NCBI RefSeq assembly: GCF_004010195.1
Contig: NC_057718.1
Span: 94,652,297-94,694,813 of the forward strand
DNA length: 42,517 nucleotides
Direction of reading: 5' to 3'
DNA from: Chiloscyllium plagiosum
Taxonomy: Eukaryota
Below, piece by piece: positions 319 through 42,517 of the stretch (position 1 is its first letter; each line of letters opens with the position of its first letter). The notes under the pieces are model-generated. The model worked only from the letters and a program-made list of their open reading frames with translations. It was not told where the DNA came from and did not search any database. A program made the translations under genes and the position numbers.

Positions 319-719
319 TTTAAATGTATCACTATCATCTGGTGAGTTTTTGAAGAAGTAGAATCTTTGATCTTGAGTTAGAAGTCTGTGGGGAACATTT
401 GCCTCTGAATCAGAAGCCTTCCTGCCCACATTATCAGCTGTCAGATGGTCAGAGATTAATTGAAGACACTGTCCCAACAGGTAGTGTGGAACCCTTGGAA
501 GTCCCAATGCACAAGCTCTGTGGGAATTTCCTGGGAAGTTTAAACCCCTGTTTCCCAAAAATCACCAACAAAGCCGAGTTTAAGGAAGAGACTTCTGATG
601 GTTCCAATTTACCTTCTAGTAACGTGAGGAAAATCCAAATCCAAGTAGTGAAACAACGTACCTCCTTAATTACTTACATTGATACCCTAGCCCTCCAAAC
701 CTGGCTCAACCATCCATGA

Positions 720-1120
720 TATGACCTGACTAGCCCAGCCCAATTCCCCTTTCTGACCTGACCAGACCCAACCTCACCATTTGGATATCCCCAATCCCCA
801 CTGACTACCTCCTAACCCTGACCTGATTGGCCTCTAACCTGACCAAGCTTGAATTGCCCCCAAACCTCAACCTGACTAGCCACTGAGCTGACAACCTGCT
901 GCTACCCAACCACTCCCAACCCTTCTCCCATCCTACCCTCTTCACCCATTTACCACCTGACTCAACTACCACCCTCTCAACATGGCACCATAATTACCTG
1001 AAATCCTCCCTCCTCCCCTGTCCACCTTCTATAATACCCACCAGCCACTATATACTCCATCCATTTATTTTACAAACTCTACCCTCTAACCCACTTGGCT
1101 GACCCAAGTATCCTCTTACA
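720..1120. repeat. C-rich low-complexity region with recurring ACCTGAC / CCTGACT motifs
   Basis: Repeated ACCTGAC-like words and strong C over G skew. Confidence 0.5.
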
Positions 1121-1369
1121 TACTTTACTTCTCTATGTAGCTTTTCAAAGATGTTTTACCTATGGGAATATGGCTACCAATGCTGTAAAAGACGGTGTAA
1201 CTTCTGCATGGACTTTCTGAACTGCTCCCTCTGAGGGTTGAAAGCTCCTCCGATGGAATAGCACTCAGAAAAATCAGAGGATGATAAATAGGATTTTTTT
1301 TGCCTGACTGGGATCAGAACTAAAAAAAAGAGGTGTGGGCCCCCCATCTGGACTGCTGCTGCTGAGAGA

Positions 1370-1790
1370 GGCTGGCTCTGTCAGAGGCTCTGCCTTTTGG
1401 CTGAGATGTTTAAACAAGTCCTGTTATCTGCACAGTTAGACATAAAATATCCCACGGTGCTATTTGAAGGTAATAGGGGATTTTTGTCAAACCTTGCAGC
1501 CCAAGTTTATTTCTCAACCAACAACAAAAGGAAAAACCTATTTTGGGGTGAACTTTGGGTTTTGCTTATCTGTTGGAACATCATCAGAAGAATTACGAAA
1601 AGGGTTAATTAGCAGAACGGCTGTAGAGATCCACTAGTCCTAACTTGTTTGTGGGAACTTTCTGCACACAAATTGCCTTTTTCCTTCATTTAGCAGAATC
1701 AATATTTCAGAGTTACTTGATGGGCCATGAAATTCCTCAGAATAACTGGACATGTGGAAGGCGTCATGTCGAAGATGATTCATTCCTTTA
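1370..1790 (+). mobile_element. Old Deu-domain SINE (SacSINE1/AmnSINE-like)
   Basis: Degenerate match to the Deu core: GAGATGTTTAAAC...CATAAAATATCCCACGGTGCTATTTGAAG...TTTATTTCTCAACCAAC. Confidence 0.6.
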
Positions 1791-2060
1791 CTCAAAGGAA
1801 CATTGGCTCATCATCTAATCAAGTTAATACCAAGCCATTCCATTAAAAATCAGCTCTTGCTTAGCCAAGCACAGTGCAATGTTCCTGTAAAACAGCTTAC
1901 TAATTGAAGAAGCATGTCTACTCAGTGGTTAATGTCACAATAGGGATTAAAATTTTACTTATGGTTATCACATAAGTATTATGCTACTGCATTGTAACAG
2001 CTAAATTGACTTGTTCATTAATCTGAAAAATACAACTAAATATTCCATTGTTTATAATAT

Positions 2061-2816
2061 TATGACATGGCGGTGAACCCTTCTGCGAATGAAACCAAAT
2101 ATCCAGAAAAGTTACCCTCGCCTCGTAATCTGTTAAAATATGAGTGACAGAGAACTCCCAAATTCCACTGTTAAAAGAAAATAACATTGATTTATTATTT
2201 AACACTAAATAGTGAACATTAAACAATAACTATTCACAACTCTGTGCCCCCTTTCTCTTAACTGCTTATTATCTGCCTCCAACTCTATAACAATATGCTG
2301 TTCCAATAAGACAATTATTAAAATTACATCAACTTAATATCAATACCATACAGTGGCTGTCGTCTTTGGTGTCTTTCTTCTTCCAGCTGAAGTCATCTTT
2401 TTTCATTTACTATGAATATATTTAATATGAAAAGGTACCTTTGATAGAGAGTGTTTCAAAGTCTTGGGTCTCTCTCGATGGCAGTTACTTACTCTGATTT
2501 TCAAAATGCCTGCCTTTTTTTTATATCCCCAACATTGGATCATCTTATTGGTTCAATATTGGCAAAACAATAAATTCAAATTCAATTGGATTTTAATATC
2601 CTGGGGCATAATTTAAACTGATTGGTTAAATTTGAATTGTTGTCAAAACAGCAACCAACTCAGGTATCTATTTCACACCAAATGTTACATATTTTCAATT
2701 TTCCAGGATGCACTGAGATTGCTAGTAAGTCACATGACAGGTGCCTGCAAGCTCTTAGTGCAAAACAGCCTTCACTCTCTCTTAAAGCTGCAGTACACAC
2801 CTTCAACTTCAATGCA
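2061..2816 (-). mobile_element. Probable degenerate solo LTR
   Basis: Ends resemble decayed TG...CA termini. There is a minus-strand AATAAA near 2191 and it resembles a shark LTR-type repeat. TSD not clean. Confidence 0.4.
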
Positions 2817-3009
2817 GCATCACCCCAGTGAAGACCTTTGCAAGTTGTATGATTAAGGTGTATTTTTGGAGAAGATGTTTGTCAAAGGGGATGAATCCAA
2901 TCTTGTAATATTATCATTCCTCATGCCATTTCCCATTTCAAATAAAGACTGAAAGAAGTGTAGTCTATAATTACTACTTTAAGATGTGCTTTCACTCTTT
3001 GCTTTGCAG

Positions 3010-3072
3010 TGAATGAACGATCAGAAGAGGATATCTAATGAGCAAGCGATCCTGTAGTTTGCAATGGAGGAA
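3010..3072 (+). CDS. PRDM2: PRDM2-like start-codon exon (5' UTR 3010-3063, coding 3064-3072 = MEE)
   Basis: Acceptor ttcactctttgctttgcag ends at 3009, strong Kozak context GCA ATG G, 9 coding nt, then donor GTGAGT at 3073. The phase-0 junction joins the 5934 exon in frame and mirrors the three-residue (MNQ) first coding exon of human PRDM2. Confidence 0.7.
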
Positions 3073-4540
3073 GTGAGTTTAATCGTAATTTAGATCCTTT
3101 CATATGTGGGGTGAATTCTGTATTATTGTCTTGTACGTTGCTGAAAGGGAACAAAATTAAATGTCTTGTACAAAGTACAAGATTGGAAGAAGGAGATGCT
3201 AGTTGCAGTTGGCATATTTCCCTTTGCTCCTGAACTACACATTTTTTTTGTTCAAAATCCTTTGCTGTTTTCATGACCTAGAAATATAGGTTGGTGACCA
3301 TGATTGTTTTAATTTCATGTGTGGCTTAATATTTTTTTGTTAGATTTGTTGGATGTGGAACAGATCCTTGTGTTAAATGTCCAAAGTTGTCAGGTGGATA
3401 CAAACCACAACATTTCCAAATCATGGTAATTGTGGTTCTCTCTGCTATACATGCATCCCAGTGCAATCGCATATTTCAGTATGTCTACTTGAGGGATGAT
3501 GCTTATTTTTAGATTGTTAATAATATCACCCACCTTAGCAGAGGTTATTTCTGAGGAATTTATATTCGCATTCCACCGTCCTCATTTTCAACACTTTTGA
3601 AAAACAAAAAGACAGAATCCTGGAGATTGCAAGAATTGCTTGTTTTTATATCCAATATTAAAAAATTCAGGAGGTATCTATGCACAGAAAAGTAAGGCTA
3701 TTGGCCTGATTTTTCCTCTGTTAGTTGGGTAACACAAGCGGATGGAGTCTGGAGCACTGTCCCCCACAATCAGAGGCAACCACAAGGATTTCTGAGTGCC
3801 AAGTATATGTGTTAAAAGTTGGTTGAGAATTTGTACTCCCATTAAGTTGTAACTTCTTCCATTGGTACTGCTGGGGAGAAGTTGACCACTTTTTGAAATG
3901 GTAATGCACTGTTTTTCTGAGAGCTCTTTCTGTAAATGGCTAAGTATTTATTTGTACAAAACAAACAGATGTCCAGTGCTTACACCTTCTTGTAAGGTAT
4001 CAAGTGCTTACTTTAAATATCATGTTGACTAGGGCTCCAGTTTAAGGAAATTATGAATGTTTGTTTGTATTTTTTAAGCACTCTGCACATGCCATTGTCA
4101 CTACAGAATTAATTGGTTGTGTACAGAATATATATAAGTTATGGGGAGTCTGTGAGATCTTGGGGTAGGGGAGTGAGATGTGAGGCCAAGATGGGTGGCA
4201 GGTGCAAGTTGGTTTTGAGGTGTAATGGGAGATGCAGTTGACATAAAGGGGACGTTGGAAAATCAGTAAAACCTTGTTATTTTTGAAAAGGCGCCAGAAT
4301 CCAGACTCGAGACTCCTCTTAAATCCGTGAACAAAGGGGCATAGAAAAGGGCCTTTCAGATGCTTGCATCCCCATAATGAGTTGACAGTGTTGCAAATTC
4401 CCACGACTTTATCTCATGCCAGGGAAAATTACTGCCACCTACCTTTTTTTCAAAGGTCTTTGAAGTCTTCGCAACGCCAGGAAAATCCAAACCAGTGTTT
4501 CGGTCAATGACCTTCTTATCAAATCAAATGGTGTAATTGT

Positions 4541-6051: not shown

Positions 6052-6207
6052 GTGAGTGTTTTTGGACAATGTTTCATGAACCTAAAGACTGGCACTAGAT
6101 GCTGTCTTTTGCAAAGCTTGCAGTTTTAACATGCATTATTTGAACTTCTGTCTTGTTATCTTATGGAGGAGCTGGGTTCAAGTGCATTATGTTAAAATAG
6201 ATGATTG

Positions 6208-6343
6208 GAGAGTGTGGTGCTGGAAATGCACAGCAGGTCAGGCAGCATCCGAGGAGCAGGAGAATCATCAGTTCCTGAAATGCCAATTCTCCTGCTCCTC
6301 GGATGCTGCCTGACCTGCTGTGCCTATCCAGCACCACACTCTC
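6208..6343. mobile_element. PLE-derived hairpin element (family 1)
   Basis: 58-nt near-perfect inverted arms at 6208-6265 and 6286-6343 with a 20-nt loop. Confidence 0.8.
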
Positions 6344-8353: not shown

Positions 8354-8545
8354 TGAACAAAAACTGAAAGAACTGCAGATGCTGTAAATCAGAGACTAAA
8401 GTAGAAATTGCGGAAAAGCTCAACAGGTCTGACGGCATCTGTGCAGAGAAATCAGAGCTAACGTTTCGGGTCAAGTGACCATCCTGATTTCTCTCCACAG
8501 ATGCTGCGAGACCTGCAGAGTTTTTCCAGCAATTTCTGTTCTTCT
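8354..8545. mobile_element. PLE-derived hairpin element (family 2) inserted in a CR1 remnant
   Basis: Inverted arms, flanked by CAGAGGATTCCAC (8341-8353) and CAGAGAATTCCAC (8546-8558). Confidence 0.75.
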
Positions 8546-9906: not shown

Positions 9907-10043
9907 CATCACATTCCTGATGAAGAGTTTATGCTCAAAACATCGACTCTCCTGCTCCTCAGATGCTGCCTGACCGGTTGTGTTTTTCCAGCACCATACT
10001 GTTTGACTCAGATCTCCTGCATCTGCAGTCCTCACTTTCTCCT
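9907..10043 (+). mobile_element. Hammerhead-bearing PLE-derived short element (family 1)
   Basis: CTGATGA AGAGTTTATGCTC AAAA (degenerate core). 13-bp TSD TGCTAGAGTCTAG at 9894-9906 and 10044-10056. Confidence 0.8.
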
Positions 10044-10526
10044 TGCTAGAGTCTAGGCTGAAGGTAAGATTTTTATTTAACATTCCGTTAACTATTTACA
10101 TCATCAAGCATAGCAGAAGATTATACACTGGACTGTCTTTCCCCAGAGTCTGCAGCTGTGGGAAAGGAGGAGGTGGCATCAACGTGATCATGTCACTGGA
10201 TTAACAACCCTAATCCCAGGCGATGTTGCAGAGACATGGTTGAGGGGAATTCATGTGTAACAAAGTAAAAACCCTGAAGGGTGTTAAAAGAAAAAGCCAA
10301 GAATTTTAATTGGGCCTCAGCCAAAATTGAGACCTGTCCCATTGGGAAGCAGCTGGAAGATGCCCAGGATGGAGCAAGAAACAAGCTTGGGAAGGGGCGA
10401 AGCAACTATAGGTTTCACTGCAAGCCTAGTTCACCACAGTCCTGCCTGATTTCCAGGTGCTAAGGTATCACAGGCCTGACCATTCAGATTGTGCTAAACC
10501 TTCTGCCCTATTCTCAAGATCCTGAT

Positions 10527-10656
10527 CCCTGATGAAGGGCTTTTGCCCGAAGCGTCGATTTTCCTGCTCCTCGGATGCTGCCTGACCTGCTGTGCTTTTC
10601 CAGCACCACTCTATTCTTGACTCTGATCTCCAGCATCTGCGGTACACCCTTTCACC
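10527..10656 (+). mobile_element. Hammerhead-bearing PLE-derived short element (family 1)
   Basis: CTGATGA AGGGCTTTTGCCC GAAG CGTC (GAAA changed to GAAG) followed by the family-1 arm. Confidence 0.8.
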
Positions 10657-10875
10657 CTGCTGTGTTCCCAGCCCAGTTTAGAACTGCAGCTCCCAGGCAA
10701 CATGGCAATACACGGTTAAAACAGAAACAGAAGTGGTCAGGTAAAATACACCAGGCTTCAAGAGTCAGGGGCCAAGGAGGAGATGAAAGCACAGGACCAC
10801 CATCGCCCACCAGTGCTCCTCATTAACAGCTCAGAGCAACTTTTAGCATCACTAACCTTGCTTGCACTATCTATT

Positions 10876-10968
10876 CCTGAAGAAGGGCTTATGCCCGAAA
10901 CGTCGATTCTCCTGATCCCTGGATGCTGCCTGACCTGCTGCGCTGTTCCAGCAACACATTTTCAGATT
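10876..10968 (+). mobile_element. Hammerhead-bearing PLE-derived short element (family 1), intact core
   Basis: CTGAAGA AGGGCTTATGCCC GAAA CGTC at 10877-10904. 15-bp TSD CTTGCACTATCTATT at 10861-10875 and 10969-10983. Confidence 0.85.
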
Positions 10969-11157: not shown

Positions 11158-11460
11158 GTCATCGAATCCCTACAGTATAGGACAGGCCATTCAGCCCACA
11201 ACAACCCCCCAACTGGCATCCCACCCAATCTCTGTAACCTTGCATTCCCTATGGCTAATCCACCTAATCTACACATCCTCAGACATTATGGGCAATTCAG
11301 CATGGCCAATCCGCCTAACCTGCACATCATTGGATGGTAGGAGGAAACCCATGCAGACATGAGGAGAATGTGCAGACTCCACCCAGACAGTCACCTGAGG
11401 GTGGAATCGAACCCAGGTCCTTGGCGGTGTGACACAGCTGTGCTAATCACTGTATTGCCC
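11158..11460 (-). mobile_element. HE1 SINE (V-SINE)
   Basis: tRNA-like head on the minus strand (GGAATCGAACCCAGGTCC on +), V-domain and HER1-like tail. Confidence 0.85.
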
Positions 11461-12429: not shown

Positions 12430-13355
12430 CCTTCCCTTTATTGGGTCAGAGCATTGAGTATAGGAGATGGGAGGTCCTGTTGTGGCTGTACAGGACATTG
12501 GTTAGGCCACTTTTGGAATATTGCATGCAATTCTGGTCTCCCTCCTATGGAAAGAATATTGTGAAAGTTGAAATGCTTCAGAAAAGATTTACAAGGATGT
12601 TAGATTAGATTCCCTACAGTGTGGGGAACAGGCCCTTCGGCCCAACAAGTCCACACCAACCCTCCGAAGAGTAACCCACCCAGACCCATTTCCCTCTGAC
12701 TAATGCACCTAACACTACAGGAAATTTAGCAAGCAAACACATGGAGAATGTGCAAACTCCACACAGACAGTCACCTGAGGCTGGAATCGAACTGGGACCC
12801 TGGTGCTGTGAGGCAGTAGTGCTAACCACTGAGCCACCGTGCCACCCCTAAAGATGAAACAGTGAACGTTTGATACAGCAAGCAGGCACCACTGGGATGT
12901 TGCCAGGGTTGGACAGTTTGAGCTATAAGGGAAGGCTGAATAGGCTGGGGCTGTTTTCCCTGGAGCATCAGAGGCTGAGGGGTGACCTTATAGAGGTTGA
13001 TAAAATCATGAGGGGCATGGATAGGATAAATAGACAATGTATTTTCCCTGGGGTAGGGGAGTCCAGAACTCGAGGGCATAGGTTTAAGGTGAAAGGGGAA
13101 AGATATAAAAGGGACCTAAGGGGTAACATTTTCATGCAAAGGTTGGTGGGTGTATTGAATGAGCTGCCAGAGGAAGTGGTGGAGGCTGGTACAATTACAA
13201 CATTTAAAAGGCATCTGGATGGGTATATGAACTGGAAGGGTTTAGAGGGATTTGGGCCAAGCGCTGGCAGGTGGGACTAGATTAATTTTGGGTATCTGGT
13301 CAGCATGGATGATATGGCCCAAAGGGTCTATTTCCATGCTGGACATCTCTATGAC
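12430..13355 (+). mobile_element. CR1/HER1 LINE, 5'-truncated, interrupted at 12602-12894
   Basis: ORF2 C-terminus LYRTLVRPLLEYC.QFWSP...RLNRLGLFSLE..RLRGDLIE.. Confidence 0.92.
12602..12846 (-). mobile_element. HE1 SINE nested in the CR1 LINE
   Basis: Head GTGGCACGGTGGCTCAGTGGTTAGC on the minus strand. GGATGTT is duplicated at 12595-12601 and 12895-12901. Confidence 0.9.
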
Positions 13356-13379: not shown

Positions 13380-13985
13380 GAGCAAAGTGCTGAAGATACT
13401 GGAGATCTGAAACAAAAGCCGAAAGTGCTGGAGAAACTCAGCAGGTCTGACAGATCTGTGGAGGCAGAAAAGACTTAAAGTCTCGAGTCCAGTATAACTC
13501 TCCTTCAGAGCTGGAGAGAGACTGTATGCTGTTGAGAAATGTGGGGAAGAGCAAGTGGAACAGAAGGAAAGATTAGGGAAAGGTTAAAGGGTGAGAGGGG
13601 CTAGAGATCAAAAGCATCATAGAACAAAATGGAAAGGGAGTCGTAATAGTGGTGGAGAATAGACAAAACATGCATCCATGTGTTAATAGCAGAATGTACA
13701 TTACCTCTAAATGAAATCAAAAGCATAAAACCAGGGCACGGGTACTCAGAAGAAATAAAAGGCAAGAGGATAGAATTTACAGTCTGAAGTCAAAGTTAAG
13801 TCCAGAAAACTGTAAACTGACATTGCAGTATATGAGGTGCTGTCCCAGCAGCTTCGGTTCCCTGGGACACTGCAACAGGCTGAGGATGGAAATGTGAGTC
13901 TGACGGTAAGATGGCATATTGAAATGGCTCGCGAGTGAAGGGTCGGGGTCGTGCTTGTGGGTGCAGTGGAAGTATTCCACAAAGT
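13380..13985 (-). mobile_element. Decayed Penelope-like element 3' end (GIY-YIG C-terminus plus terminal repeat)
   Basis: Minus translation ASHFN...ISILSLLQC....LLGQHLIY..SLQFSGLNFDF, with a family-2-like terminal arm at 13380-13510. Confidence 0.7.
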
Positions 13986-14741
13986 GGTTATACATCGTTC
14001 TGTCTCTTCTGCCCTCGCGCACAAACCCGACTTCCTCTCATGAACTGCAAACCACTAGTCATAAATCTCAAAGACGCCACATGTCCAAACCGATGGGCTT
14101 TTAAACATCATTTCATTCTGTTTGTTAGCAACTGGAGAAAGTATTGTTTCAGAAGTCACTGGATTGGATGATCGATTTAGTGATAATTCCGTTTTAGACC
14201 ACGCATGTTGATTTGCATTTCGGATAAAGCCCAGATATCAAATCTTTGTCTTTAACGTGGGTGTATATTTTCCCCTCCACATTGGCATCTTTTTGTTATT
14301 GCGATGCATGAACTGTTATAATTCTCAATTACACACACATCAGCAACAAATAGAAAGGCTGAACTCCAAGCTAGTCCCATTGTCCACCTCTTGTTGCCAT
14401 GGTAATACATGGCAAGTCTGTGTTCGGCCTTGATAACATGATTGGAGGCAATGTGATGGTAGCAGGAATAATGTGGCCACTTAGACAAATAGGGAGCAGT
14501 AATTACAAGTGGATAGAGAGATTCATGTGGTTGTAATAAGGAAGGACCCGCAAAGTAGAACACAATTTGAAGGCAACATTTCTGACTGAAGAGCAGGCAA
14601 GGAAGAAAGTGGACTCAGATTAGAAAGGAGACAAGAAAGCTCTTTATTTACTCAGAGGAGGGTAGTGAATGAAAAAGTAAAAGGGCATAAACTCAAAAGC
14701 ACATTTTTTAAAAAGTCTTTCAGTCTATTTGAAGGATTCAA

Positions 14742-17757: not shown

Positions 17758-17965
17758 ACAAAAAACAGAAATTGCTGGAGAAATTCAGCAGGTCTGTCAG
17801 TATCAGTGGAGAGAAAGCAGAGACCAGTGCATCTCTATCAGAATTAGACTCGAAACATTAACTCTGCTGTTCCTCACAAATGCTGCCAGACCTGCTGTGT
17901 CTCTCCAGCAATTTCTGTTGTTGTTTCAGATCGTCAGCATCCACACTCCTTTGTTTTATTTTAGA
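17758..17965. mobile_element. PLE-derived hairpin element (family 2-like)
   Basis: AACAGAAATTGCTGGAGA..CAGCAGGTCTG / CAGACCTGCTG..TCTCCAGCAATTTCTGTT inverted arms with central GACTCGAAACATT. Confidence 0.75.
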
Positions 17966-18735: not shown

Positions 18736-19410
18736 GCACACTCTGATCACTCTCCCCTACATCAAAGACATCTCGGAAATGACTGCCAGACTACTCAGAC
18801 CCCTTGGCATCATGATAGCCCACAAACCCACCAACACACTAAAACAGCAGCTAATGAACTTGAAAGACCTTATACAGACGAGCAAAACTAACGTCATTTA
18901 CAAAATACCGTGAAAGAACTGTAACAAACACTACATTGGACAAACAGGCAGAAAACTAGCCACCAGGATACATGAACATCAACTAGCTACAAAACAACAC
19001 GACCCTCTCTCACTAATATCCTCACATACAGATAAGGAAGGACACCACTTTGACTGGGACAACACATCCATCCTAGGACAAGCCAAACAGCAACATGCAC
19101 AAGAATTCCTAGAAGCATGGCATTCCAACCGGAACTCTAGCAACAAACACATCGAGTTAGACCCCATCTACCACCCTCTGAAAAAAAACAAGAAATGACA
19201 TCACCACAGGAAATGACATCACCACAGGAAAACCCAAAGAAACCCAAACATATAAATCAAAAGCAGGAATTATCAGCAGTGCTTCACCCAGGGGCCCCCT
19301 GAAGATATTACCTGGTAGGGTGACGAAACGTCTGGAAATGAACCTTACAGCTCAACGAGCAAACCTGCATTTAGAACCTCAACCTGAGCTACAAATCTTC
19401 TCAAAACTCT
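18736..19410 (+). mobile_element. Penelope/Poseidon-type PLE 3' fragment: GIY-YIG endonuclease plus terminal repeat
   Basis: ITLPYIKDISE...NVIYKIP*KNCNKHYIGQTGRKLATRIHEH..., with one in-frame TGA replacing a Cys. Tandem GAAATGACATCACCACAG, hammerhead core at 19299-19332. Confidence 0.92.
19299..19332 (+). ncRNA. Minimal hammerhead ribozyme core in the PLE terminal repeat
   Basis: CTGAAGA - TATTACC TGGTAG GGTGAC - GAAA CGTC. Stem II carries one mismatch. Confidence 0.65.
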
Positions 19411-23456: not shown

Positions 23457-23992
23457 CACTGTGTTCAATTCTGGTCTCCCTACTATAGGAAGGATGGTGT
23501 GAAACTTGAAAGGGTTCAGAAAAGATTTACAAGGATATTGCCAGGGTTGCAGGGTTTGAGATATAGGGAGAGGCTGAACAGGTTGGGCCTATTTTCACTG
23601 GAGCGTCAGAAGCTGAGAGGTAGCTTCATAGAGATTACGAAAATCATAATGGGAGCATGGATAGGGTGAATAGCCAAGGTCTTTTCCCCAGGGTGGGGGA
23701 GTCCAAAACCAAACAGCATAAATTTAAGGTAAGAGGGGAAAGATTTAAAAGGGACAACTTTATCGCACAGATGGTGGTGTAGTGTATGGAATGATCTGCC
23801 AAAGGAAGTGGTGGAGGCTGGTACAATTGCAACATTTAAAAAGCATCTGGATGGCTATATGAATAGGAAGGGTTTAGAGGGATATGGGCCAAATGCTGGC
23901 AAATGGGACTGCATGAATGTAGGATATCTCGTTGGCATGGAATTGGACCAAAGGGTCTGTTTCTGTGCTGTCCATCTCCCTGACTCTGTGTC
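23457..23992 (+). mobile_element. CR1/HER1 LINE 3' fragment
   Basis: CVQFWSPYYRKD.VKLERVQKRFTR.LPGL..L.YRERLNRLGLFSLE. Confidence 0.92.
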
Positions 23993-26750: not shown

Positions 26751-27240
26751 AACAATTCTACTATCACAAGGAGAAAGTGAGGATTGCAGATGCTGGAGAG
26801 TCAGAGTCGAAAAGTGTGGCGCTGGAAAAACATCCTTGGAGCTGCAACCAGAAGAGAAAATGCTGGAAAATCTCAGCAGGTCTGGCAGCATCTGTAAGGA
26901 GAGAAAAGAGCTGACGTTTCGAGTCTAACTGACCCTTTGTCAAAGCTAAAAAAAAGGGAGAAATAGGGAGGTATTTATACTAGGCTGAGAGAAGGTGAGT
27001 CGTGGCTGCAGAAGCAAAGGTAGCAATAAAGAGGTGATAATGACAGTGCATAGGGAGATTATAGGGAGATTAGGAGCTGTGAATGACCAAGGCTGAAGTC
27101 AGTGCTATGTGACAAAATACGTGGGGGATGGGGGGAATGGGTGAAGCAGAGACAAAATGGAAAACATGGGAAAAGGGTAGCAAAGGGGGAAGAGGAGAGG
27201 AAAAAGGCGATGAGAGTGGGGAGCGAGAGAGAGACGATCA

Positions 27241-28200
27241 NNNNNNNNNNNNNNNNNNNNNNNNNNNNNNNNNNNNNNNNNNNNNNNNNNNNNNNNNNNN
27301 NNNNNNNNNNNNNNNNNNNNNNNNNNNNNNNNNNNNNNNNNNNNNNNNNNNNNNNNNNNNNNNNNNNNNNNNNNNNNNNNNNNNNNNNNNNNNNNNNNNN
27401 NNNNNNNNNNNNNNNNNNNNNNNNNNNNNNNNNNNNNNNNNNNNNNNNNNNNNNNNNNNNNNNNNNNNNNNNNNNNNNNNNNNNNNNNNNNNNNNNNNNN
27501 NNNNNNNNNNNNNNNNNNNNNNNNNNNNNNNNNNNNNNNNNNNNNNNNNNNNNNNNNNNNNNNNNNNNNNNNNNNNNNNNNNNNNNNNNNNNNNNNNNNN
27601 NNNNNNNNNNNNNNNNNNNNNNNNNNNNNNNNNNNNNNNNNNNNNNNNNNNNNNNNNNNNNNNNNNNNNNNNNNNNNNNNNNNNNNNNNNNNNNNNNNNN
27701 NNNNNNNNNNNNNNNNNNNNNNNNNNNNNNNNNNNNNNNNNNNNNNNNNNNNNNNNNNNNNNNNNNNNNNNNNNNNNNNNNNNNNNNNNNNNNNNNNNNN
27801 NNNNNNNNNNNNNNNNNNNNNNNNNNNNNNNNNNNNNNNNNNNNNNNNNNNNNNNNNNNNNNNNNNNNNNNNNNNNNNNNNNNNNNNNNNNNNNNNNNNN
27901 NNNNNNNNNNNNNNNNNNNNNNNNNNNNNNNNNNNNNNNNNNNNNNNNNNNNNNNNNNNNNNNNNNNNNNNNNNNNNNNNNNNNNNNNNNNNNNNNNNNN
28001 NNNNNNNNNNNNNNNNNNNNNNNNNNNNNNNNNNNNNNNNNNNNNNNNNNNNNNNNNNNNNNNNNNNNNNNNNNNNNNNNNNNNNNNNNNNNNNNNNNNN
28101 NNNNNNNNNNNNNNNNNNNNNNNNNNNNNNNNNNNNNNNNNNNNNNNNNNNNNNNNNNNNNNNNNNNNNNNNNNNNNNNNNNNNNNNNNNNNNNNNNNNN
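27241..28200. other. Assembly gap (960 N)
   Basis: N run. Confidence 1.
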
Positions 28201-28302
28201 AGAGGTGTTAGGTGTGATGGGAAGGTGCCGTGTGTGATGGAAGAGGTGTTAGGTGTGATGGGAAGGTACTGTGTGTGATGGGAGAGGTGTTAGGTGTGAT
28301 GG
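28201..28302. repeat. 41-bp tandem repeat (about 2.5 units visible) inside the PLE
   Basis: AGAGGTGTTAGGTGTGATGGGAAGGT..GTGTGTGATGG repeated up to the gap edge. Confidence 0.85.
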
Positions 28303-28757
28303 AGGAGTGGGCTAGGTTGTCCCGGAGGGAACGGTCTCTGCAGAATGCAGACAGGGGGAGGGAAAGGAAGATGTGTTTAGGGGTAGCGTCGTGTTGGAGT
28401 TGGCAAAAGTGGCGGAGGATTATTCTTTGCATGTGAAGACTGGTAGGGTGAAAGGTGAGAACAAGAGGGACCCTATCCTTGTTCTGGGAGGAGGAGGGAA
28501 GGGGTGAGAGTCGTGGCGCGGGAGATGGACGGCACACTGTCGACAGCCCTGTCTACAACTGTAGGTGGGAAGCCACAGTTGGAGAAGAAGGAGTACATAT
28601 TAAGTGTACCACTTTGGAAAGTGGCCTCATCGGAACAAATGCGACAGAGGCGAAGGAGCTGAGAGAAAGGGATAGAGTCCTTACAGGACGTGGGATGAGA
28701 AGAGCTGTAGTCCAGATAACTGTGGGAGTCAGTGGGCTTGTAATGGATATTAGTGGA

Positions 28758-28840
28758 TCCAGGATGGCCGAGTGGTTAAGGCGTTGGACTTTAGATCCAC
28801 TAGACATATGTCTGCGTGGGTTCGAGCCCCACTTCTGGTA
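28758..28840 (+). tRNA. tRNA-Leu(TAA)-derived gene or pseudogene with anticodon TTA (ochre-suppressor type)
   Basis: 83-nt cloverleaf. A box TGGCCGAGTGG (28765-28775), anticodon arm TTGGA CT-TTA-GA TCCAC, long variable arm AGACA-TA-TGTCT, T arm GTGGG TTCGAGC CCCAC, discriminator A. TTTT at 28861-28864. Confidence 0.88.
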
Positions 28841-29234
28841 GCTCCTTGGTCCTGCTGTGCTTTTCCAGTGCCACACTTTCCAACTCTACTATCACACTCC
28901 CACCGTAATGACTGAAGATTCATTGGAGGTGTAGCCAAGAGCCAGATATGCTTTTGATCACAACTTTTCCTAAAGCTCTACAAGGGAAGAGCCTCTGCAT
29001 AGTCCGAACATTCCCTCAGCCTAGGAGGGAGTGGGATTTCCCAATGCCAAGAATTATCACACCCGCAGACCCTCAAAAGCTGGACAGATCTTCAATGGCT
29101 GGAGCAATGGATGATCCCACCGAACAGATCTGTCAAATTTCCAGGGGTAACCCATGCGATTGGAGAAAGTTGGTGACCTTACTCATGGGAGAGCTGCCAC
29201 TTACAAGCTCCCCTTCATGCCAACCCCGTCTTCA

Positions 29235-30344: not shown

Positions 30345-30683
30345 GCGGCACGGTGGCTCAGTAGTGAGCACTGCTGCCTCACGGCGCCAGGGACCCAGAC
30401 TCGATTCCAGCCTCGGGTGACTGTCTGTGAGGAGTTTGCAGATTCTCCCTGTGTGTGCGTGGGTTTCCTCCGGGTGCTCCGGTTTCTTCCACAGTCGAAA
30501 GATGTGCGCATTAGGTGAATTGGCTATTCTAAATTGTCCATAGTGTTCAGGAATGTGTAGGTTATTTGCATTACTCAAGGGGAAATATAGGGTAGAGGGA
30601 ATGGGTCTAGGTGAGTTACTCTTCTATGAGTCGGTATGGACTTGTTGGGCTGAAGGGCCTGTTTCCACACAGTGGGGATTCTA
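30345..30683 (+). mobile_element. HE1 SINE, near full length
   Basis: GCGGCACGGTGGCTCAGTAGTGAGCACTGCTGCCTCACGGCGCCAGGGACCC... ending GGGCCTGTTTCCACACAGTGGGGATTCTA. Confidence 0.92.
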
Positions 30684-32487: not shown

Positions 32488-32615
32488 AGGTAAAAACAAT
32501 GACTGCAGATGCTGGAAACCAGAGTCTAGATTAGAGTGGTGCTGGAGAAGCACAGCAGTTCAGGCAGCATCCGAGGAGCTGCTGTGCTTTTCCAGCACCA
32601 CTCTAATCTTGACCC
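32488..32615. mobile_element. PLE-derived hairpin element (family 1)
   Basis: AGATTAGAGTGGTGCTGGA.AAGCACAGCAG / CTGCTGTGCTTTTCCAGCACCACTCTAATCT. 14-bp TSD CGGAGTCTATAGCT at 32474-32487 and 32616-32629. Confidence 0.85.
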
Positions 32616-33936: not shown

Positions 33937-34266
33937 GGGCAGTATGGTGGCTCAGTGGTTAGCGCTGCTGCCTCATAGAACCAGGGACCCGGGCTCAATT
34001 TCAGCCTCTGGTGACTGTCTGTGTGGAGTTTGCACATTATCCTAGTGTCTGCGTGGGGATGCTCCAGTTTCGTCCACAATCCAAAGATGAGCAGGTTAGG
34101 TGGATTGGCCATGCTAAATTGCCTGCAGAATCCAGTGATGTGTAGGTTAACTGCATTAGTCAGGGGAAATGTAAAGTAATAGGGTAAAGGAATAGATCTG
34201 GGTGTGATACTTTTCAGAGAGTCATGGGGACTTGTTGGGCCAGATAGCCTGCTTCCATATTGTAGG
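33937..34266 (+). mobile_element. HE1 SINE, near full length
   Basis: GGGCAGTATGGTGGCTCAGTGGTTAGCGCTGCTGCCTCA... Confidence 0.9.
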
Positions 34267-35815: not shown

Positions 35816-36759
35816 TGTAATGAGGTCAGTGAGGTGGACGTCATAGAATATGAGTTCCCTTGATTAGGGCTGTTAATCTGGTCCAATCATGGAGCCCTGG
35901 CTGACAGATCTAAACAGGAGGGTCAGAGGTTCACATCACTCTGAGTGGTAAGGTCCTAGGGAGTGTTACTGAACAAAGAGACCTTGGAGTGCAGGTTCAT
36001 AGCTCCTTGAAAGTGAAGTTGCAAGTAGATAGGATAGCGAAGAAAGCGTTTGATATGTTTTCCTTTATTAGTCAGAGTATTGAGTACAGGAGTTGGGAGG
36101 TCATGTTGCAGCTGTACAGGACATTGGTTAGGCCACTGTCGGAATATTGTGTGCAATTCTGGTCTCCTTCCTATCAGAAAGATGTTGTGAAACCTGAAAG
36201 GGTTCAGAAAAGATTTACAAGGATGTTGCCAGGGTTGGAGGGTTTGAGCTATAGGGAGAGGCTGAACAGGCTGGGGCTGTTTTCCCTGGAGCATCTGAAG
36301 CTGAGGGGTGACCTTACAGAGGTTTACAAAACTATGAGAGGCATGGATAGGATAGATAGACAAAGTCTTTTCCCTGGGGTCGGGGAGTCCAGAACTAGAT
36401 GGCATAGGTTTAGGTTGAGAGGGGAAAGATTTAAAAGAGACCTACGGGGCAACCTGTTCACACAGAGGGTGGTACAGGTAAGGAATGAGCTGCCAGTGGA
36501 AGTGGTGGAGGCTGGTACAATTGCAACATTTAAGAGGTATTTGGATGGGTATATGAATAGGAAGGGTTTGGAGGGATATGGGCCGGGTGCTGGCAGGTGG
36601 GACTAGATTGGGTTGGGATATCTGGTCAGCATGGAATGGTCTGTTTCCATGCTGTACATCTGTATGACTCTATGACTCTAGCTGGCTCAAGGCCCAGTGT
36701 CAAGAACTATGCGTGTAGATACAGGGTGACGGGATACTGACCTCTGTGAAGTTATTTCA
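35816..36759 (+). mobile_element. Probable short solo LTR split by a CR1 insertion (35816-35945 and 36681-36759)
   Basis: TGTAATGAGG...GTTATTTCA termini, with CCAAT and a TATA-like TAAACAG in the first part. TSD not evident. Confidence 0.6.
35946..36680 (+). mobile_element. CR1/HER1 LINE, 5'-truncated, relatively young
   Basis: Uninterrupted 205-aa ORF2 C-terminus (35989-36606) and a GACTCTATGACTCTA tail. Confidence 0.95.
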
Positions 36760-38652: not shown

Positions 38653-38970
38653 ATCATAGAATTCCTATAGTATGGAAGCAGGCCATTCAGCCTATCAAGT
38701 CCACACCGACCCTCAAAACATCATCCAACCCAGACCCACCCCCATACCCTATCCCTGTAACCCTGCATTTCCCATAGCTAATCCACCTAGCTTGCACATC
38801 CCTGGACTCTATGGGCAATTTAGTATGGGAATCCAGCTAACCTGCACACCTTTGGACTGTAGGAGGAAACAAGAGCAAACCCACGCAGACACGGGGAGAA
38901 TGTGCAAACTCCACACAGACAGCTGCCCGAGGCTGGAATCGAACCCAGTGCCAGTGAGCCACCATGCCAC
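38653..38970 (-). mobile_element. HE1 SINE
   Basis: CATAGAATTCCTATAG..GCAGGCCATTCAGCC...GAGAATGTGCAAACTCCACACAGACAG..GGAATCGAACCC. Confidence 0.88.
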
Positions 38971-39444: not shown

Positions 39445-40112
39445 CTAGAGGTACAAGTTCACAGCTCCTTGAAAGTGAAGTCACAGATAGACAGGGTGGT
39501 GAAAAAGGCTTTCGGCATGGTTGCTTTACCCAGCCAGCCTATTGGGTATTGGAGTTGGGACGTCTTATTGCAGCTGTACAAGACGTTGTTAAGGCCACAT
39601 TTGAAGTACCACTTGCTGATCGCCCTACTATAGAAAAGATATTATTAAACTGGAACGAGTGCAGATAAGATTAACTAGGATGCTATCCAGACTGGAAGGT
39701 TTGAATTATAAGGGAAAGCTGGATAGGCTGGGACCTTCTTCCATGGAGTGTAGGAGGCTGAGGGGTTACCTTATAGAGGCTTATAAAATCATAAAAGCCA
39801 ACAGCTTTTCCCCATGGTAGGGGAGTCTAAAGCTAGAGGGCATAGGTATATTGTGAGTGGGAAAAGATGCAGAAGGGTGCAGAGAGGCACCTTTTTCACA
39901 GAGAGGGTGATCAGTATCTGGTGGGCTGCCAGAGTCAGTGGTGGAGCCAAGTACAATTTTGTCATTCAAGAAACATTTACACAGGTACATGGATGGGATA
40001 GATATGGAGAGATATGGACCAAATACAGGCAAATGGGACTATTTAATTTTGGAAGCTGAACAGTATGGGAATGATGAGCTGAAAGGCCTGTAGACCGCTA
40101 TGACTCTATCAC
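39445..40112 (+). mobile_element. CR1/HER1 LINE 3' fragment, decayed
   Basis: LEVQVHSSLKVKSQIDRVVKKAFGM...LLQLYKTLLRPHL. Confidence 0.88.
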
Positions 40113-41263: not shown

Positions 41264-42517
41264 AGGACCACACACCGCAAAAAAACGGCACGAAAAGAAA
41301 AAATGGCCAAACTAACACACAACAAAGAGGACACCACAACACACACCTGGGTTAAAAACCTCTCCCACAGACAGCTCACAGACACGGAAAGAACAATACT
41401 GGCCAAGGGACTCAACTACAACCACAGGGACGCCAAGACAGCAGACTTCCTAGCAGCACTAGAATGCACACTCAGGAACAATGGACTGACAGAAGAGACA
41501 CAACAAACAGTGAGACAAAGTATCGTACCCCTGATAACAAGGAAAAAACAAACACATAACCTCAACCCCAAGGAGAGGGAAACACTAAAAGCACTAAGAA
41601 ACGATAAGACCATAATCATACTACCAGCAGACAAAGGCAGAATGACGGTCATCCTGGACAAAGCAGAGTTCATCCAAAAAGCGCAACAACTACTTGCAGA
41701 TACCAACACCCACCAAAAGAGGGAGTTTGACCCCACCCCACAGCTCACCAATAAGATAAACAACACACTGAGGAACCTACAAAAAAACGGCCAGATAACC
41801 AGGTCTGACCTACAGAGAATGAAATCTGAAAGCAACAACACCCCCAGATTCTATGGACTACCTAAAGTGCACAAACCAGACATCCCACTCAGACCCATAG
41901 TGTCACTATCAGGGACACCATCACACAAACTGGCTAAAGAACTACAGCAGAAACTGAAACACTTGATCAGCGGATCCAGACACTCTATACAATCAACACA
42001 GGAATTCTTGGACATCATCAGAAATATACACATAGACAAGGAAGAAACCATGGTCTCATTCGATGTAACGGCACTGTTCACCTCTATCAACAAAACTCTA
42101 GCCAGAGAAACAATAGCCATCCTGCTGGAGATACAGAACAGACAACAGGACTGTGAACCTATCAACAAAGACGGCATACTCAAACTACTGGACCTGTGCC
42201 TCACAACACACTTCACTTTCAACAACCAAATATATGAACAAATCAACGGCACACCCATGGGCTCACCCATCTCTGGACTCATAGCAGAAGCGGTGATGCA
42301 AAGGTTAGAACAAACAGTCTTACCGCAAATTCAACCCAAACTCTGGGTAGGGTATGTGGATGACACCTTTGTAATCATTAAAAACACAGAAATAGAGAAT
42401 ACACACCAGCTCATCAACGCCACACTCACAGGAATCCGATTCACGAGAGAGGAAGAAAAGGACAACCGACTCCCATTCCTAGACGTGATGGTACAGAGAA
42501 CACCTAACGGAGAATTC
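41264..42517 (+). mobile_element. Penelope/Poseidon-type PLE reverse transcriptase, frame open to the window end (418 codons)
   Basis: WVKNLSHRQLTDTERTILAKGLNY, LPADKGRMTVILD, PRFYGLPKVHKPDIPLRPIVS, SFDVTALFTSI, GTPMGSPIS, YVDDTF and LPFLDV all lie in one frame. Absent from the ORF track because no stop occurs in the window. Confidence 0.95.

Follow-up and report, generated by a model that had tools for sequence, protein, structure and literature searches.

The 42,517-nucleotide stretch of the Chiloscyllium plagiosum genome analysed here (the window) carries on its forward strand a full-length, 83-nt copy derived from a tRNA-Leu(TAA), at 28758–28840, which lies antisense to a Penelope-like open reading frame (ORF) and has no leader, trailer or CCA end of its own. 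Its anticodon, at 28791–28793, is TTA in the assembly sequence and would read UAA. This anticodon is due to a single change at position 35, the middle anticodon base, which the assembly gives as a T at 28792. ARAGORN calls the copy as tRNA-Stop(tta), and its match to Rfam RF00005 scores 51.9 bits (E 2e-08), where the gathering score is 29; neither program called a second tRNA across the 42,517-base sequenced window. A first-pass annotation of this DNA had described the locus as a tRNA-Leu body with a TTA anticodon, a description that holds for the assembly, and had proposed it as a candidate natural ochre suppressor.

The A and B boxes and the cloverleaf arms are present, the long variable arm is paired and the discriminator base is A. 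When scored against the list in a passage of PMC11028032, the identity elements for leucyl-tRNA synthetase (LeuRS), namely A73, A4:U69, G5:C68 and the long variable arm, are all kept. The cloverleaf contains both of the mismatches that had been noted earlier, a T.T at 1:72, which leaves the end of the acceptor stem unpaired, and a T.C at 27:43, together with a G-T wobble at 6:67. By-eye comparison with human tRNA-Leu-TAA-1-1, which was taken in the form given in supplementary file 15 of PMC12675287 and is not the shark parent, gave differences at 7 of the 83 sites, in agreement with the annotation's "about 7" from a vertebrate consensus. These are gene positions 1, 35, 43, 45, 56, 69 and 77 (28758, 28792, 28800, 28802, 28813, 28826 and 28834 in the window). 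Human Leu-TAA-4-1 natively carries the copy's base at 69, and human Leu-TAA-3-1 the copy's base at 77; hence, some of the differences may come from the shark parent. A fold of the tRNA alone (z of -1.29, no cloverleaf) was discarded as uninformative for an unmodified tRNA.

Upstream of the tRNA, on the minus strand, is a 5'-truncated fragment of the Penelope-like ORF (about 28253–28757) from the region after the reverse transcriptase (RT) core, with one frameshift near 28490. Of 133 candidates, 73 proved to be homologues of the fragment (best E 2.8e-25), and the named ones near the top of the list are from rays and a bamboo shark. PF26215 was detected in 65 of these 73 homologues, RVT_1 in 17 and GIY-YIG in 3, with both RVT_1 and GIY-YIG scoring in one of them (P0051). 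The combination of RVT_1 and GIY-YIG is the architecture of Penelope-like elements (PLEs), as described in passages of PMC11167929. The assignment to this class follows from the domains of the homologues, since Pfam gave no significant hit on the fragment itself (94 aa), nor on five window frames. A metagenome scan with the fragment matched 598 stretches, of which none was confirmed. Alignments to the homologues start at 28757 in 46 cases and at 28754 in 10, while 14 reach into the tRNA by four or five codons and 3 start deeper in the ORF. As residues that are conserved upstream of the 28757 point in the homologues are missing here, these alignment starts indicate that the ORF was cut off at the base before the tRNA. 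At the other end of the fragment, at the edge of an assembly gap, is a 41-bp tandem duplication (28201–28302; 2.5 copies, 95% matches), which may reflect real decay or an assembly edge effect.

The tRNA and the ORF fragment form part of a larger unit, which consists from left to right of one duplication copy, an inverted repeat end, the 3' part of a PLE, the oppositely oriented tRNA, a short repeat end and the second duplication copy. The outer boundaries are a 12-bp target-site duplication, with identical plus-strand copies at 26757–26768 and 28885–28896. This 12-bp word is found at these two places only in the window, and at the same spacing a common stretch of at least 12 nt occurred in 0 of 20,000 random pairs of 30x30 nt and in 67 of 20,000 pairs of 100x100 nt. 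Inside the left copy is a dispersed repeat end ("end type 1", 26769–26832, minus strand), probably a Penelope-like terminal repeat, with 79–88% identity to copies at 9981–10045 and 10593–10659. It is inverted relative to a short copy of the same end type at 28841–28884 (plus strand), which starts directly after the discriminator base and has a 10-nt internal gap. Both of these inverted copies have a G that is present in 0 of 7 other aligned copies. Further in are the related 3' end of a Penelope-like element ("end type 2", about 26840–26934, minus strand), with 76–88% identity to several window copies, and an assembly gap of 960 bases (27241–28200), where the GIY-YIG region would lie. The left end of the unit is joined to the rest only across this run of 960 Ns.

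The junctions of the tRNA are abrupt. Retroelement homology extends up to 28757 and resumes at 28841, so that the tRNA has no flanks of its own, and an 8-bp perfect palindrome (chance about 0.4%) is centred on the 5' junction at 28757/28758. Inverted terminal copies and a short target-site duplication are both present in the unit. That the tRNA lies inside one target-site-duplicated Penelope-like insertion is well supported. A pattern search for a hammerhead core found none in the sequenced part of the unit. Hammerhead-like cores were found in sibling repeat copies at 10877 (+), 16392 (-), 25050 (-) and 32058 (-) and also at a repeat end at 19299 (+); the pattern, which is what we take to be the hammerhead motif, gave 11 hits in the window in all, some of which are surely due to chance.

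The plus-strand arrangement of a Pol III head, a retroelement 3' end and a duplication could also belong to a multi-copy SINE-like family whose members join a tRNA-Leu head to a Penelope-like tail, for which the anticodon would be irrelevant, and non-autonomous PLE derivatives have been proposed (parts of bioRxiv 2026.07.22.740005). We consider such a family very unlikely, as the tRNA-headed unit is present as one copy in 42.5 kb and its left duplication is not at the 5' end of the tRNA but about 2 kb off, beyond the ORF fragment.

Several other repeats were observed in the window. Short fold-back insertions, in which two repeat ends lie head to head, are located at 6203–6343, 8403–8542, 17764–17933 and 32536–32604, and their ends are of the two types found on either side of the tRNA unit. 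Hairpins of these fold-backs account for weak Rfam miRNA hits (6224–6327, 8426–8513 and 32538–32599), all of them below the gathering score. An RT-core fragment at 41486–42496 (+) belongs to a different Penelope-related element and has 26–28% identity to the homologues P0022, P0027, P0051 and P0058. Two remnants with stops, at 18827–19105 (+) and 13786–14058 (-), match the C-terminal (GIY-YIG) region of PLE homologues; an end-type-2 copy at 13421–13489 is followed on the same strand by the second of these. A LINE-like 3' end family, presumably CR1-like, has copies at 1–300, 12895–13345, 23460–23941, 35914–36671 and 39605–40071 that are up to 91% alike, one of them with a 230-codon open frame without a Pfam hit. 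Finally, a SINE-like dispersed family (11340–11452, 30359–30471, 33953–34065 and 38873–38948) received no tRNA call from ARAGORN.

How did a tRNA come to lie within this insertion? We think it likely that a tRNA-Leu(TAA) copy was reverse-transcribed into a Penelope-like insertion and has decayed neutrally since, with TTA as one chance change among about seven. In the mechanism that we propose, the element's endonuclease would cut the two strands at sites 12 bp apart, and each resulting 3' end would prime reverse transcription. One cDNA would extend across the 3' end of the element and on into the RT region, while the other would copy about 45 nt of the repeat end, switch to the 3' end of a tRNA and copy this to its 5' end. 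The two cDNAs would then be joined head to head at 28757/28758, and the odd first base of the tRNA could perhaps be a product of this junction, either the final base of the PLE arm or one added without a template, and not a later mutation. A two-step variant, in which an ORF-tRNA chimera landed in an older fold-back, would also fit. This history is allowed by a 7-bp direct repeat (26833–26839 and 28843–28849, plus strand), a possible inner target-site duplication; the repeat is weak, as a match of at least 7 nt turns up in about 4% of random 30x30 pairs, and each copy sits in related repeat sequence. The one-step and two-step histories both place the tRNA inside the insertion.

In purified form, a PLE protein both cleaves the two strands and extends them, and its reverse transcription starts without homology (passages of PMC11167929); inverted truncated copies are typical of PLE insertions (parts of PMC8557442), which also exhibit junction palindromes, 8–10-bp duplications and unrelated captured sequence (parts of PMC3846280). 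Chimeras of tRNA and LINE-1, as described in passages of bioRxiv 2025.02.02.635956, are mostly antisense with 9–19-bp duplications and have been ascribed to twin priming. On the likeliest reading, the unit shows that a Penelope-like element can probably bring an entire tRNA into its insertion by copying, much as LINE-1 brings in tRNA halves.

A copy of a mature tRNA is expected to carry the CCA end. No CCA follows the discriminator base here, and its absence counts against RNA copying, although a switch at an internal site or a donor still lacking its tail would account for it. A genomic tRNA gene likewise lacks CCA, and it is conceivable that such a gene was taken at the DNA level, either because it was already present or because a DNA segment was copied between the inverted ends. 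PLEs are known to move intron-containing genes between their terminal repeats (a passage of PMC3846280), and the 960-base gap could hide a donor. However, both junctions lie within one base of the mature tRNA ends without leader or trailer, the duplication is outside the tRNA on both sides and no second tRNA is present in the sequenced window. We therefore regard capture at the DNA level as unlikely and favour reverse transcription of a tRNA.

If the tRNA was inserted together with the repeat ends, these provide a measure of its decay. The inverted ends, which presumably entered the genome as identical copies, differ at 4 of 27 sites (4 of 39 when the duplication is included), corresponding to about 5–7% per copy (95% interval, 1.4–17%). 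Decay at this level predicts 4–6 changes in 83 nt, while the tRNA has 7 relative to the human gene, or 4–5 if some were inherited; for 4–7 changes, the probability of as few is 0.26–0.94, in a test of low power. This low-power comparison weakly suggests that the tRNA is no less diverged than the repeat pieces inserted with it. The first-pass annotation had noted that boxes, arms, A73 and the variable arm are retained. They are indeed present, but seven random changes would miss the 11–15 key box and identity sites with a probability of 0.23–0.35, so that their retention is within chance. A double change in the variable arm had also been pointed out. The arm is paired as stated, but seven random changes would hit some base pair on both sides with a probability of about 0.13–0.15 (lower for staying paired) and the change may have been inherited from the parent; we do not accept it as a sign of selection. 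A paired variant of this base pair was not found under the names tried in the PMC12675287 supplement.

A T4 run is present 20 nt downstream of the tRNA, as had been reported, at 28861–28864. It belongs to the end of the dispersed repeat at 28841–28884, and 3 of the 7 other copies aligned from the window have it too; hence, we rejected it as a sign of a maintained gene. A stop-reading anticodon would arise by chance after seven random changes with a probability of about 0.02 for TTA, and up to 0.04 if TCA is included, under an assumed mutation spectrum. An error in the assembly consensus, with TAA as the true anticodon, is a further possibility, since T28792 lies where two short homopolymers meet and an assembly gap is about 590 bases away. 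The six other differences in the tRNA and the 5–7% decay of the co-inserted repeats make a real substitution far likelier than a base error at the usual consensus accuracy, and we give very little weight to such an error. These comparisons suggest that the TTA copy is likely a decayed tRNA pseudogene whose anticodon changed by chance. Of the earlier alternatives, a decaying pseudogene or a weak suppressor, the former is well supported by the Penelope-like insertion context, which the annotation had not seen.

It is necessary to consider whether a copy of retroposed origin could nonetheless be active, with Pol III transcription from the internal boxes, termination at the T4 of the repeat, maturation and leucylation of the RNA and weak readthrough of UAA. 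LeuRS does not read the anticodon (passages of PMC11028032 and PMC9976931), which bears out the annotation's premise, and the boxes and LeuRS identity elements listed above are all retained. The best amber-suppressor backbone is of the Leu-TAA family (parts of PMC12675287). In yeast, a plasmid-borne Leu-UUA suppresses ochre codons without a growth defect (a passage of PMC11028032), and Leu-UAA was among the types in a plasmid screen in human cells that reported multiple hits per type (parts of PMC6379413). Random leaders allowed expression, and T4 termination was predicted for about 75% of transcripts (parts of PMC12675287).

The effects of the individual body changes can be judged from a saturation amber screen of human Leu-TAA-1-1 in PMC12675287, for which we used the rows for the changes in this copy and neighbouring rows among 2,174. 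Values are mean/median log2 enrichment, and the unchanged tRNA, represented by one row with a slightly different oligo, scored 1.97/1.77. In these rows, the changes at positions 43 (4.28/4.34) and 56 (2.83/2.99) were above this baseline, that at position 45 (2.99/1.96) at or above it and that at position 77 (1.39/1.73) near it, so that four of six body changes are near or above baseline singly; the change at position 69 was about twofold lower (1.00/0.95). Only the position-1 change was clearly low (-0.17/-4.54). This change lowers amber suppression in TAA-1-1 and TAA-3-1, the two backbones with a clear baseline in the rows used; it is also low in TAA-2-1, for which no baseline was seen, while in TAA-4-1 it matches a baseline that is itself low. 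The low position-1 score may be confounded by the U6 start site. The 27:43 mismatch had been held against function. The position-43 change scored above the unchanged tRNA in TAA-1-1, but lower in two other backbones (2.13/0.11 versus a baseline of 3.48/3.43 in TAA-3-1, and -0.33/-5.13 versus -0.08/-0.34 in TAA-4-1, in the rows used). On these scores, we rejected this mismatch as a sign of damage. The body-change scores, which are for single changes in an amber reporter and show several to be tolerated, count against the pseudogene reading.

Against activity, the terminal 1:72 pair is broken in this copy, no constraint on the tRNA relative to the co-inserted repeat pieces was seen in the low-power test above, and the amber-screen values are noisy and differ among backbones. 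Moreover, an edit of Leu-TAA-1-1 at the anticodon only made it 5.6-fold less abundant than the wild type, and when 418 intact, endogenous human genes were prime-edited to a UUA anticodon at single copy, none proved to be an effective TAA suppressor (parts of PMC12675287). Even if expressed, the TTA copy would likely do little. We judge an active copy of retroposed origin to be highly improbable, and there is an equally slim prospect that a PLE insertion created a new Pol III gene, with a terminator from the element's end, which an anticodon change then turned into a live, weak, leucine-inserting ochre suppressor in a shark. From the sequence we infer that the TTA copy is not a working decoder, although low-level Pol III transcription is possible. 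The headline proposal of a candidate natural ochre suppressor has no positive support: the terminator is derived from a repeat, the retained features are within chance and intact human genes given TTA as single copies did not become effective suppressors. An active copy would be of far greater consequence, since a vertebrate would then be tolerating a natural ochre suppressor, built on a backbone that is favoured by gene-therapy screens and yet fails for UAA at single copy. On the likeliest reading, it is a single fossil.

Engineered Leu-TAA suppressors (parts of PMC12675287 and PMC6379413) share the backbone family of this copy and, in the TAA screens, the same anticodon edit. They differ in that their stems are intact and their flanks were chosen; as single copies they worked for TAG and TGA but not for TAA. 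The primate antisense tRNA/LINE-1 chimeras, as described in passages of bioRxiv 10.1101/2025.02.02.635956, are similar to the present unit in that a tRNA and a retroelement fragment lie in opposite orientation within one duplication (9–19 bp), and they have been explained by priming from both ends, as proposed here. A copy of the CCA is not required in these chimeras. In the shark, by contrast, the partner is a Penelope-like element, the whole length of the tRNA is present instead of the usual half and a short repeat end sits between the tRNA and the duplication.

The known PLE insertion units, in the parts of PMC8557442, PMC3846280 and PMC11167929 used, likewise have a 5'-truncated ORF, inverted ends, a junction palindrome and unrelated cargo. 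Their duplications are 8–10 bp, versus 12 bp here, and the cargo here is a tRNA cut at its mature ends. Capture of a tRNA by a PLE was not found in a literature search covering listings and the starts of abstracts, nor in the passages of PLE papers, a limited coverage; in those passages, a tRNA as cargo had 0 mentions in PMC3846280 and the retrozyme preprint, and PMC8557442 had 1 unrelated mention. Hence, the combination of a tRNA and a PLE insertion may be undescribed, although it is still one copy of a general kind.

Stop-reading tRNA copies are themselves to be expected. Stop-complementary anticodons account for 14 of 414 single anticodon changes (PMC3923123), and three of four fishes tabulated in the relevant part of PMC5982815 have 0–2 possible suppressors beside 497–4186 tRNA pseudogenes. 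A fish genome thus holds tRNA pseudogenes by the hundreds to thousands, among which some stop-reading copies would arise by chance. A literature search found 0 shark genome papers giving counts of suppressor tRNAs. The tRNA-Sup-TTA entries of zebrafish and mouse, in the portions of the annotation consulted, are like the shark copy tRNA-shaped, with a stop-complementary anticodon one base from that of a sense tRNA. The zebrafish entry clusters with Lys-TTT, whereas the shark copy derives from Leu-TAA, and, compared with these annotated vertebrate entries, the retro-insertion context can here be read directly. Read in this context, the TTA copy explains how a "suppressor" entry arises in vertebrate tRNA annotation without function.
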